From positions 992,001-1,056,000 of the forward strand of contig CAWBZI010000001.1 of NCBI GenBank assembly GCA_963793265.1: DNA of 64,000 bases, written 5' to 3'. Under the pieces are notes generated by a model, which did no database searches, had not been told where the DNA came from, and saw only the letters and a program-made list of their open reading frames with translations. Both the position numbers and the translations under genes were made by a program. The stretch's first letter is position 1. Each line of letters begins with the position of its first letter. This DNA comes from an uncultured cyanobacterium (GTDB taxonomy: Bacteria; Cyanobacteriota; Cyanobacteriia; Phormidesmidales; Phormidesmidaceae). Positions 41,403-50,632 of this stretch are shown in pieces.

Positions 41403-41448
41403 AAAACAGCTATGAGAGGATTGCAAAACCCCTTTCATCGCTGTTTTT
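41403..41448. terminator. Probable bidirectional terminator
   Basis: AAAACAGC.ATGAGAGG...CCTTTCAT.GCTGTTTTT between convergent genes. Confidence 0.6.
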
Positions 41449-41747
41449 CATTGCAATCGCCTAAGCAAGCTGATAGCCGCACCTTGATCCGGGGTGATAA
41501 CAACGCGATCGCCCACCGCCGCCACCGGGCTCCACAGCGAAGACTCCGCATAGTTCAACACATGTAGCTGGTGAATCGCCCGATGAATCGCCTCAGGAGA
41601 ACCCACTAAAATATGCCGCAGTTCCTCCTGAGCACAGCGCCCACCAGAGGTGCGATCGCCTCGACTACGTTCAGTTCTTAAACAATTCTGAGCAGCAGAC
41701 TCTACCGCCAATGACAGCGGGAAGACAGTTAAATCAAGCATTCTCAC
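41448..41747 (-). CDS. Small hypothetical protein
   Basis: LRHILVGSPEAIHRAIHQLHVLNYAE..WSP resembles a recurrent cyanobacterial family; start uncertain. Confidence 0.65.
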   Translation of the reverse strand: MRMLDLTVFPLSLAVESAAQNCLRTERSRGDRTSGGRCAQEELRHILVGSPEAIHRAIHQLHVLNYAESSLWSPVAAVGDRVVITPDQGAAISLLRRLQ

Positions 41748-42167
41748 GATTTCTCCGATAGCAGTTTAGAAGAAAGCGCGAAAACTTAGCCGCCCCAACT
41801 TGTCAAAAGTCAGGGCGGCTATGGCATCATAGGCCATAACCACTCGACTGGTAGTTGCAGTTGAGGGGCGAGCGGGCGGTGATTGGGCTCAATCAATCAT
41901 CGTCTGCGGCTGCTAAATTTTCGGGCGGTATAGTGTTGCATTAGCCTTTAACAAGCAAACAACAGCTATAAGAAATAGCGTATCAGTATTTTTCAAAACG
42001 CGCCAACTATTTTTGACAGGGTTTGATGACGAATGCGGAAGGGCGATCGCCTTCCGTCACCAAAGCAGCCTACAATTAAACAGCATCTACCTTCAAAAAC
42101 GGCAGCGAACTCGACACATGTGAGTAAGTAGCAAAACTGACTGAAACATCAAAGAAGGAATAGGCAT

Positions 42168-42818
42168 ATGGCGGCGTTTCAAATATCGCAGCTTGATATT
42201 AAGCCCGGCCACAGGGTATGCCTCAATAACGTGAACTGGGGGCAGTTCAAAGACGTTTTAGGGGATCTGTGCGATCGCCGCGCCACAAAAATTGCCTACA
42301 GCAACGGAAATCTAGAAATTATGGTTTCGCAGCCCGAGCACGAAGAAAACAAAGAGATTATCAGCGACTTACTCAAAGCCCTACTCGAAGAACTCAACCT
42401 AGAATTTAGAGCCCTCGGCTCAACCACCTTCGAGCAACAAGCCACCCTCAAAGCCATCCAGCCCGACCAGTGCTTCTACATCCAAAACGAGGCCACCATT
42501 AGAGGCAAACGCCGCCTCAGCCTTAATGTAGACCCGCCCCCTGACCTTGCCATAGAAATTGATGTGGCCTCTCGCACTCATCTTGAAATTTATCAGGCCT
42601 TGGGCGTGTCGGAGGTGTGGCAGTTTAAGCGCGATCGCCTCACAATGCATAAGCTGTGGCAAGGCAAATACGTGGAAGTAAAAGAAAGCCCCATCTTTCC
42701 AAATCTTCCTCTCAAAGAGCTAATTCCCTATTGTTTAGAACAAAGCCGAACGCTAGGTAGAAACGTTGTGATACGAGACTTTCGGCTATGGGTTAAAGAC
42801 AAAATTAAGGCGCAATAG
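42168..42818 (+). CDS. Uma2-family endonuclease
   Basis: LEIMV..HE..LGSTTF..QPDQCFY..PPPDLAIEID..LGVSEVW. Confidence 0.92.
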   Translation: MAAFQISQLDIKPGHRVCLNNVNWGQFKDVLGDLCDRRATKIAYSNGNLEIMVSQPEHEENKEIISDLLKALLEELNLEFRALGSTTFEQQATLKAIQPDQCFYIQNEATIRGKRRLSLNVDPPPDLAIEIDVASRTHLEIYQALGVSEVWQFKRDRLTMHKLWQGKYVEVKESPIFPNLPLKELIPYCLEQSRTLGRNVVIRDFRLWVKDKIKAQ

Positions 42819-42854
42819 CGATTTCTCTTCAAGAGCATCGATCAGCTTCTTAAG

Positions 42855-43238
42855 TCAACTTGATGTTTCGGACGAATCGATAGGTAAATGACGTAATCTA
42901 TATCGACCATCTTCAATTGTCACCAATGCACCAGATCTTAGAGCTTGATCGCATTCAGCAATGACCGATATCACTCTAGAGGTAACAAAGTTTGGAGTCG
43001 TATTCTTAAGTCGTAAGATTATTGTACTAGGAAGTGAAGTTGCTGTTGCCGCTAACAAATCTGCAAAATCTAGATCGAACGTTATGATAATTCGCTCTTC
43101 TCTTAGAGCTTTCTGCACAATCTCAGAATCTCTCATCCGAAACAAGCCCTGCTCGGACAGGTGAACTGCATCATATTCGCGCTTGCATAAGGACTCTACT
43201 GTTCTAGGCGAAACTCCCATATCTGCTAAGAACTTCAT
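42855..43238 (-). CDS. DUF5615 PIN-like toxin
   Basis: MKFLADMGVS..DAVH..D.EI..A..EERIIITFDLDF. Confidence 0.88.
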   Translation of the reverse strand: MKFLADMGVSPRTVESLCKREYDAVHLSEQGLFRMRDSEIVQKALREERIIITFDLDFADLLAATATSLPSTIILRLKNTTPNFVTSRVISVIAECDQALRSGALVTIEDGRYRLRHLPIDSSETSS

Positions 43239-43462
43239 GCAGCACTACCGAGCGGATGTACTTCTTCACTCGCTAAAAACACCGCATATTGCAAGCAAGC
43301 TGAGATATCTTCTTTTTCTAGATAAGGATAGTCTTGCAGTATCTCTTCAACAGACATTTGATTCGCTAGCAAGCTGAGCACTAAGGAAACGGTAACGCGC
43401 ATCCCTCTTACACAGGCCCGGCCGCCCATCACATTAGAATCAAAAGTAATTCGATCAAACAT
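43235..43462 (-). CDS. DUF433 antitoxin
   Basis: RITFDSNVMGGRACVRGMRVTV..ILQDYPYLEKEDISACLQYA; ATGA overlap with the toxin gene. Confidence 0.92.
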   Translation of the reverse strand: MFDRITFDSNVMGGRACVRGMRVTVSLVLSLLANQMSVEEILQDYPYLEKEDISACLQYAVFLASEEVHPLGSAA

Positions 43463-43560
43463 AGCTACCTTTTGTAGTTGCAGTTACACACATAACGCAC
43501 TCAGCACTCTCAGCTAAGCCACTCTAGCGTTCATTTTTGGGCTATCTATCACAAACACTA

Positions 43561-44058
43561 TTAATCTGATACGCCTGCGATCGCACCCAAAGCCTCCGCA
43601 TACTTCTCCAAACCAGACCTCAACGCATCTAACTCACCGCGCACCACCATTTCCTTATCCCAAGCCTTCTCGTGCACTTGAGGACTTACCCCTGCATCCC
43701 GCGTCTCTTCCCATTCTTGCAATAGGGGATGCCACTTTGCTAAAAAAGGACGTAGGCCGTTATTAAGAACCGCGATCGCAATTCCCCCCACCGAATCATG
43801 CGAAGCGCCCACCCCTGGCCCCGCCTTCCGCAAAATCTCCCGCGTTGAGCCAAACAAGCTATACAGCGAATTCATCGCCTCGCGCACCAGCCCTTCTTGT
43901 GGATGCAAACTCTGCACCGCCACCCGCGTTACCAGCTCCACATACAGCTCCCAAGCCGCATTCCGCTCAGTCGGATCAGCCTTCCAAGTCGCTCCGCCAA
44001 TGCCAAATGGCAAATTCACAGTCACTTCTTTGAGCACAGCGGGATCGCGTTTCGGCAT
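43561..44058 (-). CDS. Hypothetical protein
   Basis: Clean 165-aa ORF (LPFGIG..AAWELYVELVTR..LRPFLAKWHP); function not recognised. Confidence 0.75.
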   Translation of the reverse strand: MPKRDPAVLKEVTVNLPFGIGGATWKADPTERNAAWELYVELVTRVAVQSLHPQEGLVREAMNSLYSLFGSTREILRKAGPGVGASHDSVGGIAIAVLNNGLRPFLAKWHPLLQEWEETRDAGVSPQVHEKAWDKEMVVRGELDALRSGLEKYAEALGAIAGVSD

Positions 44059-44173
44059 ATTAGTGAGGGAGTAGTCAATTTGCTCCGATTATAGAATGAT
44101 TAGCCACCACTGCAGGGTTCATTATGTGTGGTAACTGGCTGAACTAGCACCGTTGGTGTGGAGTCGTGTTCCA

Positions 44174-44263
44174 TTCCACTCCCTCGACTCCGATGAGCTT
44201 AGGCAAAAAATTGAAGACTTTATTGAATCCATCGAACTTAATTCGACAGAAGATACAAAATGA
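44174..44263 (+). pseudogene. Probable 3' remnant of a gene translationally coupled to ORF 44260
   Basis: Reads ..FHSLDSDELRQKIEDFIESIELNSTEDTK* with its TGA overlapping the next ATG (ATGA); no full-length ORF upstream. Confidence 0.4.
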
Positions 44264-44544
44264 ACCTTAATGAGCTGCCTGGCGCAGAGTTTATTCTTCC
44301 TGGACTAGAAGATCTTAGGCAGGGAGAAAATAATACAATTGGAGCGTTACTAATTGCGATCGCCCCCACCCGCCTCACCAAAGCAGGTCTTGCCATCCCT
44401 CAAACGCCTTTAGCACCTGAACCCGAACTAACCCTATACGCCCACCTTAAAAAAGAGCACACCGACGCCTATCCTTACTACAACGCCTTACTCACACGCC
44501 TCAACAGCTTTTGCAATGCGCTCGAACTACTGAATAGACAATAG
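44260..44544 (+). CDS. Hypothetical protein
   Basis: MNLNELPGAEFILPGLEDL..DAYPYYNALLTRLNSFCNALE. Confidence 0.75.
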   Translation: MNLNELPGAEFILPGLEDLRQGENNTIGALLIAIAPTRLTKAGLAIPQTPLAPEPELTLYAHLKKEHTDAYPYYNALLTRLNSFCNALELLNRQ

Positions 44545-44548
44545 AAGT

Positions 44549-45361
44549 ATGGACTGCCCTAAAATTCCGATGTCTTACGACGAATTCGACACGATGGAGC
44601 ATCTTTTGGGATGGAAGACAGAATACTGGGATGGCTGTGCGCATCTGAGCCCTCGCGAAATGGGCATAGAAACTCGCTTAGCTCTACCAGCTTCCTCATC
44701 GGTAGAGCCAAGTCTCGAAGCATTCATATCTATCACCCCAGACTCTAGCTACAGCCAACAGATAATAGACGGCTACATTGCATCTTTTATCAACTCCGTT
44801 GAGTTCTGTGGCTGGCCAACTGACAGAATCTTTGAAGAAGCACATGACGATATCGCGCTGTACTTTGGAAACAAGCGAGGAAAACCACTCTCGGCTTCTG
44901 TAATTCTGCTAGAACCAGAAACCCAATGGGTTATTGCCACCGCTTTGGTAACCGACAAATCAAAGCAGGGCGCTTGTTTAGAACTCTTGTATGTTCGTCC
45001 GCCCTATCAAAGGCAGGGCATAGGTAGCCATATTATTCGTCACATTACGCATACGCTCAGCAAGCAAGGCTACTCACAGCTTGCAAGCCGTTATCATATC
45101 TGCAATTTTCAGAGCCGTCAGTTCTATCACAAGCTTGGGTTTCAGGATGTGCGCGATCGCTACACCCTACCCACCTACATCGCTTGGCTCAGAAACGAAA
45201 TCCATAGAAAAGAAAGTCTCAAAATGCTCGACGGCATAGAAGAAATGAAACAAGAACAGAAACAGCTACGAAATAAGCTCGACAGATTAGAAGAAGAATT
45301 TGCACAAAGTATTCGCGAAGCCCTCGAAGAGGCCAAATCTTTAAAACCAGAAGTTCATTAG
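44549..45361 (+). CDS. GNAT N-acetyltransferase with coiled-coil tail
   Basis: LYVRPPYQRQGIGS, N..SRQFYHKLGF. Confidence 0.88.
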   Translation: MDCPKIPMSYDEFDTMEHLLGWKTEYWDGCAHLSPREMGIETRLALPASSSVEPSLEAFISITPDSSYSQQIIDGYIASFINSVEFCGWPTDRIFEEAHDDIALYFGNKRGKPLSASVILLEPETQWVIATALVTDKSKQGACLELLYVRPPYQRQGIGSHIIRHITHTLSKQGYSQLASRYHICNFQSRQFYHKLGFQDVRDRYTLPTYIAWLRNEIHRKESLKMLDGIEEMKQEQKQLRNKLDRLEEEFAQSIREALEEAKSLKPEVH

Positions 45362-45505
45362 TAATGATTAGCTTTGACAGGATAATAGAGCACTTGATGC
45401 TGAGTTCTGCCCTATGATGCTCCCACTCAATGACAATCGGTTTGCATTTCAGTTTACCTATGCTCTGATGTACTACTATTTACACAACTCAACGAGCTAT
45501 TTTGG

Positions 45506-45742
45506 ATGCCTACGCTTCTTACAGTCGGGCCGTATCGCTTCTTTTGCTACGCAGGCAATCGCGACGAACCGCCTCATGTACATATTGAGCGAGATAATGA
45601 TGAAGCAAAATATTGGCTCGATCCAGTTCGCCTTCAACGAAACAAAGGATTCAGCCGCCCCGAACTGAACCGCATCCAGAAGCTTGTAGAAGATAACAAA
45701 GATAAATTACTAGAGGGTTGGAATGAATTCTTCAACGATTGA
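45506..45742 (+). CDS. DUF4160 family protein
   Basis: MPTL..GPYRFF..EPPHVHI..EAKYWL..WNEFF. Confidence 0.88.
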   Translation: MPTLLTVGPYRFFCYAGNRDEPPHVHIERDNDEAKYWLDPVRLQRNKGFSRPELNRIQKLVEDNKDKLLEGWNEFFND

Positions 45743-46022
45743 ACTTCTCGAAGTCCCAACGATTCAAAAGCTTTGTCTTGATGACGAAACACTTACCGTA
45801 GATTTATCTGACGGTCGTACTATTTCTGTCCCACTTTCTTGGTATCCGAGGCTAGTGCATGGTTCAGACGCAGAACGTAATAACTACAGGTTCATAGGTG
45901 GCGGCAGCGGCATTCACTGGAATGAGCTGGATGAAGATATCAGCATACAAAATCTCATCATTGGACAGCCTTCTGGAGAAAGCCAAAAGTCGTTTCGACG
46001 GTGGTTAGATATGAGAAGCTGA
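45723..46022 (+). CDS. DUF2442 family protein
   Basis: LTVDLSDGRTISVPLSWYPRL..GIHWNELDEDISI; overlaps the DUF4160 gene. Confidence 0.9.
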   Translation: MNSSTIELLEVPTIQKLCLDDETLTVDLSDGRTISVPLSWYPRLVHGSDAERNNYRFIGGGSGIHWNELDEDISIQNLIIGQPSGESQKSFRRWLDMRS

Positions 46023-46071
46023 GAGGGATATTGCCTTTACGCCATAGATATTTGAGACAACGCGCATATAG

Positions 46072-46335
46072 CTATGACAGTAAATTGTCTAATGTAGCGC
46101 GATCACTCTCCAAGTCAGCCATATCAAAAGGCGGCTCAGCATCTTCCTGTGAAAGAAAATCATAAGTCTCCCATCTCGAAGTAAACCCCAGCATTTGACG
46201 CACCCCACCAGCCCCAACAAGTCCCTTTCGATAAGCTTCTACAGCTAACAATTCTAGGGATCGACGAGTCAGCGTTTCATAGCTTTCAGAAATCTGCGAC
46301 GCAATACCATCAGGAATCTCAATTGTTATCTGCAT
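46072..46335 (-). CDS. UPF0175 family protein
   Basis: MQITIEIPD..LAVEAYRKG..LGFTSRWETYDFL..DLESD. Confidence 0.85.
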   Translation of the reverse strand: MQITIEIPDGIASQISESYETLTRRSLELLAVEAYRKGLVGAGGVRQMLGFTSRWETYDFLSQEDAEPPFDMADLESDRATLDNLLS

Positions 46336-46419
46336 ACCTGTTAAGCCTACAACATCTGCCTTTTACATCATAGATGCGATCCTCTTCAGTACGCAATTTG
46401 CGAAGACCTAACCATCAAC

Positions 46420-47922
46420 TTAGTTTGAAATATCAAATTTACTATACAAAAATTCCAATGTCTCTTCGTCTCTAAGCCTACAGATCGTCCCTACATGCGC
46501 AAATAAGCCCGTAGCCCAGAGAGCCTGCTCCTTCGGCAGCGTCTTCAGCCAATCCACACGCGCCACCCATTCCGACAGTTCTAAATTGTTGCTGTTTTGC
46601 GCGAGTCCTTCCGCCTCTAAATCCATATCAAGCAGCGGCGTATTTTCCGAACCCACCGTAAATGATTTAATAGGCACCGCTGCCTCGACAACCCTGCCAT
46701 AGCCGACATAGCCTCTACCACCCACATAAGCAAAAAAGGTGCTGCCTACCTCCAGTTTTCGCATAGCAGCCGCAAGCTTTGCGCTCTGCCCCGCACTAAT
46801 AAATCCATACTTCTGACAGTCCGCCCAAGACCTTTGGTTTTTACCCACTCCTACATTAATAAACCAATCGCCAATCCACTCTATTTTAAGTTCTTCACTC
46901 TCTCCACCGTTTTCAGCACCTATTGAATTTTCGCTGCTAAACTCTTTGCGCAAGAAATCTAGAGTTCTCTTATGCCTGAGCTTGCATACCACGTTCGGGT
47001 TTGCAAACGCGCCAACAAACCGGTGGGCTTCCTGCTTCGGAAAAGTTTTGAGCCACTTTACACCAACAACCCATTCTGAGAGTTCTAAGTTATCACTGTT
47101 TTCGGCAGGCTTCTCCGCTCTCAATTTCACATTCAGCAGAGGTGTATTTTCTTGTCCTACAGTAAACTCTTTAATAGGAACGGCTTGCTTGATAACTTCG
47201 CCCTGACCAACGTACCCTAAGCCTGAGATGTAGGCATAGATCGTACTACCAACATTCAAATTTTTAAGAGCATTAGAATAGACTGAGCCCTGTCCTGCGC
47301 TAATGAATCCATATTTTACGCAGTCCTCCCAAGTTCGGTAGTCGCCCTCGCCTACGTTAACAAACCAGTCTCCTGCCCATACTAAGTTTTCCACAGGAGG
47401 GCGCTCACGCTCTTTTACCGAGATCTCAAACTCGTTTTCTTCCGAATCTTCGCTATCTTCAATAGAAGGAGAGGCTATCTCATCATCGTTTGAAGAAGAC
47501 AATGAGGTAGCGTTGTCCGCTGTTATATGCAAATTAGATAGATACAAATTGACTTCTTCAAAGAAAGATTCTGGGGGTAGCAAGCCGTCTCTTGCATCAA
47601 AATGCTGAATATTGGCAACATTGAACCACCGCTCATCTTCCAAAAGAATAGGAAATATTTTCTTCTTCTGCTCTAGCGCAATAATTAATTCGCAATCTAC
47701 CCAGTGAGACTCAAGAGAACGAGGCGTCATAACAACTACAAAAACATGACACGCTTTTAGGTGCTTCCAAATCTCTTTTGCCCAAGACCTAGTACCTGGG
47801 GAGATCTGATCGTCCATCCAAACAGACAAACCTTTCACCCTAAAGGCCTCGGCTATTTGTTTTGCATATTTTTGATCCTGGCGGCTATAGCTAACAAAAA
47901 TAAATGGTGATGCTTTAGACAT
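46420..47922 (-). CDS. TIR domain protein with two tandem EVE/PUA-like domains
   Basis: IFVSYSRQD, VWMD, SHWVDCE TIR motifs; acidic linker; two repeats of about 147 aa (approx. 47379-46939 and 46878-46432). Confidence 0.8.
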   Translation of the reverse strand: MSKASPFIFVSYSRQDQKYAKQIAEAFRVKGLSVWMDDQISPGTRSWAKEIWKHLKACHVFVVVMTPRSLESHWVDCELIIALEQKKKIFPILLEDERWFNVANIQHFDARDGLLPPESFFEEVNLYLSNLHITADNATSLSSSNDDEIASPSIEDSEDSEENEFEISVKERERPPVENLVWAGDWFVNVGEGDYRTWEDCVKYGFISAGQGSVYSNALKNLNVGSTIYAYISGLGYVGQGEVIKQAVPIKEFTVGQENTPLLNVKLRAEKPAENSDNLELSEWVVGVKWLKTFPKQEAHRFVGAFANPNVVCKLRHKRTLDFLRKEFSSENSIGAENGGESEELKIEWIGDWFINVGVGKNQRSWADCQKYGFISAGQSAKLAAAMRKLEVGSTFFAYVGGRGYVGYGRVVEAAVPIKSFTVGSENTPLLDMDLEAEGLAQNSNNLELSEWVARVDWLKTLPKEQALWATGLFAHVGTICRLRDEETLEFLYSKFDISN

Positions 47923-48110
47923 TTTCCTTCGTTTCTTTATCCTGTAAACACGACGATCGCAATCGAATCGAGAGCAATACTCATAAAGGCTTTCAAAGTC
48001 TCTACTAGCATCTCCGTATGGAATTAAACATGCTCAATTAACTTTCCTCTATATTTTAGAGTAATCGCCTAATAGACTGTATCTGTGAATATCAAAGCTA
48101 TATTCAGTTT

Positions 48111-48360
48111 TTATACACAAAAGCGCTTACTGCGCCTAAACGGTCGCAAGGGCCTCAAGTCTTCCTTCATCGCAAAAAACCACTCAGCACCCTGGTACAA
48201 AGAGGAAAGCTCGCGGCTAAACCCAATACTCACAAGCTCAACAACTTCATCAGCTTTGTAAGCTTCCGTAACCCACAAGTTATCTTTTCTCATGTATCGC
48301 TCAACTGATAGCTGCCTCTGATGCATTAGTATATACTCTTCCAGATCTGGAATCGACAGC
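48111..48360 (-). pseudogene. C-terminal remnant of a Uma2-family endonuclease
   Basis: SIPDLEEYILMHQ..VERY..W..VELVSIGF..LSSLY; the N-terminal catalytic half is absent and the fragment begins at the psaB terminator. Confidence 0.7.
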
Positions 48361-48361
48361 A

Positions 48362-48396
48362 CAAAAACAAAGCCCCCCAGCAATGCTGAGAGGCTT
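48362..48396 (-). terminator. Rho-independent terminator of psaAB
   Basis: Minus strand AAGCCTCTCAGC-att-GCTGGGGGGCTT-TGTTTTTG. Confidence 0.75.
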
Positions 48397-48427
48397 CATC
48401 TTATCTATCTAACTGCGCTTTATAACC

Positions 48428-50632
48428 CTAGCCGAATCGACTAGACGTTGACGCAATCAAGAAGGCGGCGTAGGTCAGAATGTATCCCACCGTAAAGTGA
48501 GCCAGACCGATCAAGCGACCTTGAACAATAGACATTGCAACCGGCTTGTCCTTCCAACGAACCAGGTTAGCCAAAGGCGTACGCTCATGAGCCCAAACGA
48601 GGGTTTCAATAAGCTCTTGCCAATAACCACGCCAGGAGATGAGGAACATAAATCCAGTCGCCCAAACCAGGTGTCCAAAGAGGAACATCCAAGCCCAAAC
48701 AGCCAAATTATTCATCCCGTAGGGGTTATAGCCGTTGATTAGCTGAGAAGAGTTCAGCCAGAGATAGTCTCGCAGCCAGCCCATGAGGTAGTTAGAACTC
48801 TCATTGAACTGAGCGACGTTACCACTCCAAATCGACAGATGCTTCCAGTGCCAGTAAAAGGTCACCCAGCCAATGGTGTTGAGCATCCAGAACATCGCCA
48901 GGTAGAACGAATCCCACGCTGAGATGTCACAGGTGCCGCCACGACCAGGGCCGTCGCAAGGGAAGCTAAAGCCGAAGTCCTTTTTGTCGGGCATGAGCTT
49001 AGAGCCACGGCCATCCAACGCACCTTTGACCAAGATCAAAGTGGTGGTGTGCAGGCCGAGAGCGATCGCATGGTGAACCAAGAAGTCACCAGGCCCAATT
49101 GCCAAGAACAAAGAGTTGCTACCGCTGTTAATCGCATCCATCCAACCAGGGAGCCAAACGCCACTAGCAGCAGCATTGGCAACACTATCAGGGTTAGAAA
49201 GTAGCGTATCAAAGCCGTAAAGCGCTTTACCAGAAGCCGCCTGTACAAACTGTGCGAACACAGGCTCTACGAGGATTTGCTTCTCAGGGGTACCAAAGGC
49301 AACCACAACGTCGTTATGGACGTAGAGTCCGAGCGTGTGGAAACCGAGGAACAAAGAAACCCAGCTCAGGTGAGAGATGATTGCTTCTTTGTGGTCGAGC
49401 ACTCGTGCGAGCACGTTGTTCTCATTCGCCGCAGGATCGTAGTCCCGAATCAAGAAGATTGCACCGTGAGCAAATGCCCCCACCATGATGAAGCCAGCAA
49501 TGTACTGGTGGTGAGTGTATAGCGCAGCCTGAGTAGTGAAGTCCTGAGCCATGAAGGCATAAGGAGGCAGCGCATACATGTGCTGAGCAACCAGAGACGT
49601 GATAACGCCCAAAGAAGCCAGCGCCAAAGCAAGCTGGAAGTGCAGCGAGTTGTTCAACGTGTCGTAAAGACCGGTGTGACCTGCACCCAAACCGCCATTA
49701 GGAGGACGGTGAGTGTTCAGAATCTCTTTGATGCTGTGACCAATACCGAAGTTCGTCCGGTACATGTGGCCAGCAATGATGAAGATGACCGCGATCGCCA
49801 GATGGTGATGCGCCATATCCGTCAGCCACAAAGATTGCGTCTGAGGATGGAAGCCACCCAAGAAGGTCAAAATCGCGTCGCCAGAACCCGTAGAAGTACC
49901 AAAGAGATGGCCAGCCGTATCAGGGTTTTGGGCGTAAGCGCCCCAATTGCCTGTAAAGAACGGTCTTAGACCCTCGGGGTGAGGCTTCATCGTCAGGAAG
50001 TTATCCCAGCCGACATGCACACCGCGAGACTCAGGAATCGCTACGTGAACAAGGTGGCCCGTCCAAGCCAAAGAGCTGACGCCGAACAAACCAGCCAGGT
50101 GGTGGTTGAGGCGAGATTCAGCATTCTTAAACCAGGACAAGCTAGGGCGAAACTTGGGCTGAAGGTGTAGCCAACCTGCAAACAGCATCACTGCTGCGAG
50201 GCCAAGCAGACCGACTGCGCCAGTATACAAATCGCCGTTCGTGCGCATCCCGATGGTGTACCACCAGTGATAAACGCCCGAGTAAGCAATGTTCACAGGC
50301 GTGCTAGAGCCAGCTTGGCTAAAAGCATCGACTGCGGCCTGACCAAAGTGAGGATCCCAAATCGCGTGGGCGATGGGCTTCACATTGAGCGGGTCTTGAA
50401 TCCACTGAGGAAAGTTGCCTTGCCAAGCGACGTGGAACAGGTTGCCAGAAGTCCACAGGAAGATGATCGCCAGGTGACCGAAGTGAGAAGCAAAAATCTT
50501 TTGGTAAAGATTCTCTTCTGTCATCCCGTCATGGGTTTCAAAGTCGTGAGCTGTCGCAATCCCGTACCAGATCCGACGAGTTGTCGGATCTTGTGCCAGG
50601 CTTTGGCTAAATTTTGGAAATTTAGTTGCCAT
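48428..50632 (-). CDS. psaB: Photosystem I core protein PsaB
   Basis: [37 protein letters not shown]. Confidence 0.99.

Follow-up and report, generated by a model that had tools for sequence, protein, structure and literature searches.

The window that we analysed, a stretch of 64,000 nucleotides from an uncultured cyanobacterium, carries a gene for a 500-aa protein in which a TIR domain is followed by two repeats with a predicted EVE-like fold. We give about an even chance to the reading that this is a one-protein abortive-infection system, in which the repeats would recognise modified DNA of a phage and the TIRs, once clustered, would cleave NAD+. Besides the architecture itself we observed a conserved glutamate (Glu78) in the TIR, purifying selection on the gene and swappable effector partners of the repeat-type domain.

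Gene and protein layout

The gene is an open reading frame without an internal stop on the minus strand. It consists of the following parts:

46420..47922, minus strand: gene of the TIR-(EVE-like)2 protein (P0001), one of 20 TIR-plus-two-repeat proteins
47518..47922, minus strand: TIR_2 domain, residues 1-135, with the predicted catalytic Glu78 at 47689-47691 (Pfam, Glu conservation, fold search)
47380..47517, minus strand: acidic linker, predicted to be disordered, residues 136-181, varying in length among homologs (composition, alignment, pLDDT)
46933..47379, minus strand: repeat 1, residues 182-330, predicted EVE-like, with the nuclease-fused consensus kept (FAN.NVVC motif; model, fold searches, PADLOC)
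46879..46932, minus strand: short acidic spacer, residues 331-348, missing in many homologs, where the repeats abut (alignment, model)
46432..46878, minus strand: repeat 2, residues 349-497, diverged and EVE-like by prediction (FAH.GT.C motif; self-alignment, tree, model)

The preliminary description of this DNA had listed a TIR with a Glu in the motif SHWVDCE, an acidic linker and two clear repeats 167 codons apart, and we recovered all three. The motif begins at residue 72, which makes its Glu E78, and residues 131-180 contain 15 D/E vs 3 K/R. The self-alignment of the repeats scored 461 vs 56 for the best of 500 shuffles, with 86 of 152 columns identical. The offset is 167 for the first motif (WFVNVG at 186, WFINVG at 353) and 168 for the others: KYGFISAGQ at 203/371, AVPIK at 247/415, ENTPLL at 258/426, NLELSEWV at 278/446 and WLKT at 290/458. 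In the full-length AF2 model the individual domains were confident and the pLDDT fell below 50 across residues 134-183. As the full-length pTM was 0.36, we assume no fixed arrangement of the domains.

Metagenome contigs from independent runs cover the gene in pieces. Contig X1 matched 46288-47064 with 5 differences and 47078-47733 with none, contig X2 matched 47194-48504 with 5 differences, and no single piece spanned the whole gene. We rejected the start at residue 29 that is given in the database (P0002), since homologs align from Met1. No curated full-length NCBIfam family matched the protein above its cut-off and a promoter and terminator scan stayed at chance level.

Fold of the repeats

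The AlphaFold2 model of repeat 1 (94-row alignment) reached a pLDDT of 89.6 and a pTM of 0.84. Searching with this model, Foldseek gave 9 matches at E<=0.001 and ranked THYN1/EVE first (E 1.4e-4), followed by MJECL36, a YTH domain, PSPTO5229 and VcaM4I. VIA-align, run against 48,161 chains, aligned 117 residues with PH1033 (Z 11.1, rmsd 2.7) and 125 with the EVE-HNH enzyme VcaM4I (Z 10.0, rmsd 3.9). Its top 22 rows are EVE, YTH, ASCH or McrB-N-type entries plus DrmAB. In the full-length model repeat 2 shows the same predicted order of elements as repeat 1. The repeat is predicted to adopt an EVE/YTH-like pseudobarrel fold of the PUA superfamily; the resemblance to EVE/PUA domains that had been proposed from the repeat pattern is borne out, at the level of a model, by AlphaFold and Foldseek on repeat 1.

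Repeat 1 had no Pfam match at E<=1, EVE (PF01878) included, and the whole protein had no EVE match. Of 19 members of the domain family 3 scored weakly against Pfam EVE (best E 0.0019), and relatives in general came no further than E 0.002-0.2. Because the repeat of the window does not score with Pfam EVE, we treat it as a family separate from EVE. A PDB sequence search with the domain profile also gave no significant match. Residues W198, W284, F306 and N308 are invariant in our homolog alignment A1 and are pocket candidates only (compare P24, W82 and Y130 of VcaM4I). In the portions of the two sources available to us, the EVE domain of VcaM4I is described as flipping 5mC and 5hmC out of DNA (PMC7897488), and EVE, YTH and ASCH folds as binding RNA too (PMC6765204).

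Fusion partners of the domain

At E<=0.001, a domain profile built from 19 copies matched 1,668 cluster representatives, a number that fell to 1,024 at E<=1e-10. Two copies of the domain occurred in 4 of the best 150 cluster representatives, all of them already known from this lineage. Across the 144 new representatives, most of which had no Pfam match, many being fragments, we counted the following Pfam partners: NucS_C (16), TIR_2 (5), GmrSD_C (4), PLDc_2 (4), Schlafen (3), GIY-YIG (2), kinase (2) and HEPN (1). Further fusions involve GmrSD (P0122-P0124, L098), PLD, HsdR_N, helicase and Schlafen, and the domain was also found with GUN4 and in kinase-containing proteins. Relatives lie on 45 plasmids; the phage collection that we searched gave no match. 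As far as the sequences tell, such a range of partners is what one would expect of a sensor module that is portable. A DNA ligand fits, since most of the named fusion partners are DNases. In line with the expectation that homologs would be associated with defence, the PADLOC/Pfam scan shows defence-type fusion partners of the same domain. We also noted a ZacC-like helicase (L039:4485-8489; PADLOC E 2.5e-231) that ends in a C-terminal copy of this EVE-like domain.

Both repeats match the C-terminal half of the PADLOC PDC-S11 models PDLC04916 and PDLC04915 (E 8e-102 and 3e-68), where the value of 8e-102 was obtained for PDLC04916 with the whole protein and only profile positions 185-356 were matched. 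Repeat 1 is ~50-65% identical to the domain in proteins of these two types. However, those proteins combine a NucS-like nuclease with a single domain, whereas the protein of the window combines a TIR with a doubled one. It gave no NucS_C match in Pfam and has no N-terminal PD-(D/E)XK nuclease of the PDC-S11 kind.

One member of PDC-S11 has been characterised. According to the accessible part of the preprint (bioRxiv 10.64898/2026.09.05.749240), Madara is the PDC-S11 of E. coli ECOR34, stops glucosyl-hmC T4 and not unmodified T4, needs Asp63, is placed divergently from brxA and has a C-terminus that its authors call distantly EVE-like. Madara shares the PADLOC system name and a modification-dependent defence is likewise proposed here, but its effector is a nuclease and not a TIR. 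We dropped Madara as direct evidence for the repeat because the brxA-divergent E. coli gene, which served as a stand-in (WP_001240363.1, 332 aa, PDLC04909 type, with Asp63), has an unrelated C-terminus: hhalign gave a probability of 0.2% against the repeat and the domain profile had no match to that ORF. Asp63 itself is not discriminating, as L036 has Asp63 plus the repeat-type domain. A blastn search of 5,426 E. coli genomes gave no match for a Klebsiella gene that combines the nuclease with the repeat-type domain. Judging from these comparisons Madara most likely carries a C-terminal domain other than the repeat, and since the C-terminus of the stand-in is unrelated, the T4 glucosyl-hmC phenotype is not transferable to the repeat. 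Madara shows only that the nuclease chassis usual for the domain can act in modification-dependent defence.

PDC-S11 comprises at least 8 PADLOC models with different C-termini. Under this one label, NucS-like nucleases are joined to C-termini of at least three unrelated kinds: the EVE-like domain, DUF4268 and that of the brxA-linked E. coli type. Examples of differing C-termini are:

L107:9090-10088
L104:3001-4164

Phenotypes should not be copied across a label that pools unrelated C-terminal sensors.

TIR domain

Pfam TIR_2 (PF13676) covers residues 8-113 (E 3.1e-24; 86.2 bits vs a cut-off of 28). The Glu78 position in helix alphaC, which we take to be catalytic from the alignment to Cat1, is kept in 18 of 18 aligned homologs and in 22 of 22 fused TIRs from three TIR clades. 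The same Glu is kept in all 14 GUN4-fused TIRs of these clades and its retention is thus not specific to defence. Among solved sequences, the TIR of the NAD-degrading Cat1 comes closest (E 1.6e-5); the fold search placed TIR structures on top, with SPARTA as the best match.

A four-copy model of the TIR scored 0.69 vs 0.02 for the best control; as assemblies of this kind have been solved, this score may stem from structures that the predictor already knew. Of 30 solved pairs 20 attained the mark that we used, as did 1 of 23 single chains. Contact agreement between the runs was at least 96% and the pLDDT at least 85. Residues 40-48 contacted 88-91/104-108, and residues 46-55/73-84 contacted 100-104, contacts that resemble the two-stranded assemblies of active TIR enzymes. 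The TIR is predicted to self-assemble via its BB-loop/beta-D-E and alphaB-alphaC/alphaD surfaces. The role of effector that had been assigned to the TIR is in part supported, by the conserved Glu and by the predicted self-assembly; the depletion of NAD+ is putative.

We detected a TIR in 20 of the 25 two-repeat proteins; each of the remaining five is either a truncated protein or the broken copy of genome G020. In a quick tree the fused TIRs form three clades, each of which is shared with TIR-GUN4 proteins encoded at these loci, and the starred branches force at least 3 partner changes. A TIR with one domain copy was found in other clusters with different TIR types (P0182, P0183, P0205, P0287 and P0311, the last called from its sequence and Pfam count and not by the TIR profile), which suggests that the fusion arose more than once.

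Divergence of the two repeats

In a quick tree of the domain, in which every fifth NucS-type protein was kept and most were left out, the repeat 1 copies cluster together (support 91) beside nuclease-fused copies. In the same tree 24 of 25 repeat 2 copies fall into another group (support 85) with single-domain proteins that have a hydrophobic N-terminus. Two labels of this tree need correction: L010 is marked TM in error and resembles the PLD fusions, and P0025 duplicates repeat 1 of L001. At profile column 130 an Asn is present in 99% of 144 nuclease-type copies and in 96% of repeat 1, and a His in 20 of 24 repeat 2 copies. Mean identity is 71% among repeat 1 copies and 61% among repeat 2 copies. 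With a mean net charge of +2.2 (repeat 1) and -0.9 (repeat 2), the repeats are not strongly basic.

The TIR-tandem gene is under purifying selection. In 4 unsaturated comparisons within one domain lineage dN/dS ranged from 0.07 to 0.16, and it was well below 1 in all three domains. From the separate groups and the low dN/dS we infer that the duplication is old and that both repeats are maintained. The two repeats possibly have different specificities; repeat 1 retains the consensus of the nuclease-fused copies and repeat 2 departs from it, so that the tandem may provide a second specificity or avidity.

The hydrophobic single-domain proteins have ~205 aa, with a hydrophobic N-terminal segment and one domain of the repeat 2 lineage, and are encoded directly after psaB in several genomes. 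Loci of such proteins are:

L005:7462-8076
L043:2449-3057
L045:7474-8121
L046:7490-7927

The Kyte-Doolittle maxima over 19 residues were 2.5-2.6 in 3 of 5 tested proteins and 1.4-1.6 in the other 2. It is possible, going by these sequence features, that they are a membrane-effector version. At L004 the version with hydrophobic segment and EVE-like domain adds a C-terminal GUN4.

Distribution and the slot downstream of psaB

Outside this cyanobacterial genus we found no tandem TIR form, and within the genus its presence is patchy. The domain occurs in 12 of 46 genomes of the genus (11 strong matches, 1 weak) and in 9 of 401 genomes of the class, where two intact copies were seen only in this genus. 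The 4 matches outside the genus within the class are single copies, 3 of them on NucS-like proteins. The full architecture is present at named loci of Phormidesmis priestleyi and Leptolyngbya sp. BC1307. The copy in G020 is broken by frameshifts and an inserted element.

The TIR gene lies just downstream of psaB (psaA and psaB were recognised from their translations), in a patch with a GC content of 46.1% vs 51.6% in the rest of the window:

41448..48427, no strand assigned: hypervariable slot downstream of psaB with Uma2, DUF5615/DUF433, the 165-aa gene, GNAT, DUF4160/DUF2442, UPF0175 and the TIR gene (context, not counted as part of the system)
43561-44058, minus strand: 165-aa protein, without Pfam, PADLOC or NCBIfam match

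The DUF5615/DUF433, DUF4160/DUF2442, UPF0175 and Uma2 genes around the TIR gene agree with the TA-rich patch described before. No classical R-M, CRISPR or other named system was identified beside the gene. Of the 11 strong genomes, 7 have the domain within ~3 kb of their main psaB and 2 have it elsewhere; in the remaining 2 psaB was not found. We compared 40 stretches downstream of psaB, 9 of which carry the domain, 8 having been picked for that reason. The slot is highly variable and draws on a pool of Uma2, TA pairs, TIR-GUN4, NACHT-type and small genes. A pool gene is present in 28 of the 37 stretches of at least 2 kb, with 29 distinct patterns counting the empty one; these counts are descriptive, as the pool was defined after the fact. 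Across the genus (L065-L096, L042-L046) the gene order changes, and NACHT-GUN4 and EVE-like genes are included. We found no integrase, flanking repeats or cassette-flanking sites in the slot, and the repeat search gave only chance pairs and HIP1-like 8-mers. Contigs in two runs skip 272 bases at 45372-45645, most of the DUF4160 gene, and thus point to cassette loss among close strains. The slot is a candidate site for mining defence genes.

The 165-aa gene is present in 24 of 46 genus genomes and in 11 of 40 psaB slots, mostly near TIR genes, and directly follows the TIR gene in L001 and L042. We rejected it as an obligate partner, because it was not found in G018, whose TIR-tandem gene is intact. 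Its Atlas look-alikes are unnamed, with DUF6650 as a weak lead. The genome of the window has a further psaB-like copy, which is divergent (G000:C7:98884-99327; 83% identity over the query), as do many relatives; it may be a far-red-light or stress paralog.

Proposed mechanism and alternative explanations

In the abortive-infection reading, to which we assign an even chance, the repeats would bind modified bases on invading phage DNA. The flexible linker would allow TIR polymerisation, so that the TIRs cluster and assemble. The assembled TIRs would cleave NAD+, the infected cell would arrest and neighbouring cells would be protected. The tandem repeats could add avidity or a second specificity. 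We expect the ligand to be a base modification that phage DNA carries at high density, as opposed to an ordinary methyl mark of the host. The host genome has 8 matches to PF00145 (C5-cytosine methylase) and 1 to PF02086 (Dam-like), and with these methylases a reader of plain 5mC or 6mA would risk self-activation, which makes a hypermodified base the more likely ligand. Cyanophages with modified bases exist, among them S-2L with 2-aminoadenine and S-B43 with carboxymethylcytosine (PMC12783734 and PMC8065100), so a natural target is plausible. The literature search found no experiment on this EVE-like domain family. Against the abortive reading weigh the RNA binding of EVE, YTH and ASCH folds, the binding of free nucleotides by PUA-like domains, the low basicity of the repeats, the Glu kept in GUN4-fused TIRs, the unrelated C-terminus of the Madara stand-in, and the lack of a curated family above its cut-off or of an identified named system beside the gene.

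A more specific version is tentative and in our judgement rather doubtful. Here the TIR NADase would be switched on directly by hypermodified phage DNA, the density of the modification would scaffold TIR polymerisation, the two repeats would read two modifications, and filamentous cyanobacteria would have re-wired the reader onto NADase, membrane and GUN4 outputs in the psaB slot. If true, the density-scaffold reading would expose ~1,000 clusters of EVE-like readers.

In the main alternative, which we nevertheless consider unlikely, the same abortive NADase would be triggered by a free modified nucleotide that stems from phage-driven breakdown of the heavily methylated host chromosome (the logic of Metis and PUA-Cal-HAD), or by modified RNA. 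The PUA-like domains of those systems bind m6dAMP, which leads to NAD or dNTP depletion or to a membrane effector, as far as the accessible text of the sources goes, and our hydrophobic-N-terminus repeat 2 proteins echo the pairing of NADase and membrane effector in Metis; the many host methylases would fit as well. Against this explanation stand the DNases that make up most named partners of the domain, a different family motif in PUA-Cal (VWWGWW, in the same partial source) and the lack of a HAD phosphatase, the enzyme that clears the background signal in Metis, among the scanned neighbours in the window.

The three TIR clades raise the question of a role outside defence, since all of them are common to TIR-GUN4 or TIR-NACHT-GUN4 neighbours. 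The protein could act in stress signalling within a cyanobacterial TIR-GUN4 network, either reading a host RNA or DNA modification or serving as a TIR-TIR adaptor. GUN4 fusions have been proposed as photosynthetic-status sensors (PMC7159879, available in part), the domain itself occurs with GUN4 and in kinase-containing proteins, and the gene adjoins psaB. However, presence is patchy with one broken copy, most relatives are nuclease fusions, some of them on plasmids, and the slot behind psaB is variable and full of TA-type genes. Non-defence signalling fits this patchiness less well than the abortive reading does, and we regard it as quite improbable.

Some bacterial TIRs with this type of assembly make 2'/3'cADPR. 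A Thoeris-like arrangement, in which the TIR makes a cyclic ADP-ribose isomer that signals to a separate effector and does not drain NAD+ itself, would agree with the weak matches to ThsB/ThcB4 profiles (E 1e-10; for ThcB4 39.5 bits vs a cut-off of 220) and with the 165-aa gene that follows the TIR gene at two loci. But no ThsA-like, SLOG or Macro effector was present among the scanned neighbours in the window and the 165-aa gene was not found in G018, whose TIR-tandem gene is intact; we rate this arrangement as improbable too. That the gene is a non-functional by-product of domain shuffling, as the broken G020 copy might suggest, is hardly credible given 20 intact TIR-plus-two-repeat proteins, a dN/dS well below 1 and the invariant Glu.

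Comparison with known systems

The EVE-nuclease type IV enzymes VcaM4I and TspA15I share the predicted EVE-type fold (Z 10.0 to VcaM4I), whereas the effector here is a TIR. Bell et al. 2020 (PMC7641849) report EVE fusions to PD-(D/E)XK, PLD, GIY-YIG and GmrSD, the same nuclease partner set as that of the repeat-type domain, and in the part of that source open to us no TIR fusion is among the EVE fusions. Metis type I/II and PUA-Cal-HAD (bioRxiv 10.1101/2025.11.05.686725 and 10.64898/2026.01.15.699771, both available in part) likewise join a PUA-superfamily sensor to an effector that destroys NAD or nucleotides or acts on the membrane. Their sensor family differs by motif, the protein of the window has two sensor copies, and neither a calcineurin-like phosphoesterase nor a HAD partner was found in it or its scanned neighbours. 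The second of these preprints, in its accessible part, lists PUA-like-TIR fusions of another family computationally. Cat1, TIR-SAVED, TIR-STING and the TIR-APAZ of SPARTA, TIR NADase effectors that clustering activates, resemble the protein in combining a TIR that has a Glu at the catalytic position with a ligand-binding module. However, their triggers are cyclic nucleotides or guide-target duplexes from partner genes, none of which was identified here, and the sensor here is EVE-like.

Our search, mostly of literature outside subscription journals, turned up no paper that describes this domain together with a TIR, whether as one copy or in tandem. PUA-superfamily readers fused to effectors are known; a TIR with tandem EVE-like repeats appears to be new (see also PMC12191111 and PMC12839542). 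The modification-dependent defences known so far are for the most part nucleases cutting modified DNA, and TIR NADases have mostly been described as second-messenger effectors; a modified-base reader coupled directly to a TIR would join both kinds. Loss of NAD+ would also offer a simple read-out in the search for the ligand of this large, uncharacterised family of EVE-like domains (1,024 clusters).

The TIR-GUN4 proteins have the same three TIR clades and occupy the same genomic slot, with two EVE-like domains in place of GUN4 in the protein of the window. In a neighbouring TIR-GUN4 protein (L001:12260-13348) the GUN4 part matches PADLOC PD-T4-6 (E 9.8e-32), hinting that cyanobacterial GUN4 fusions may be related to defence.
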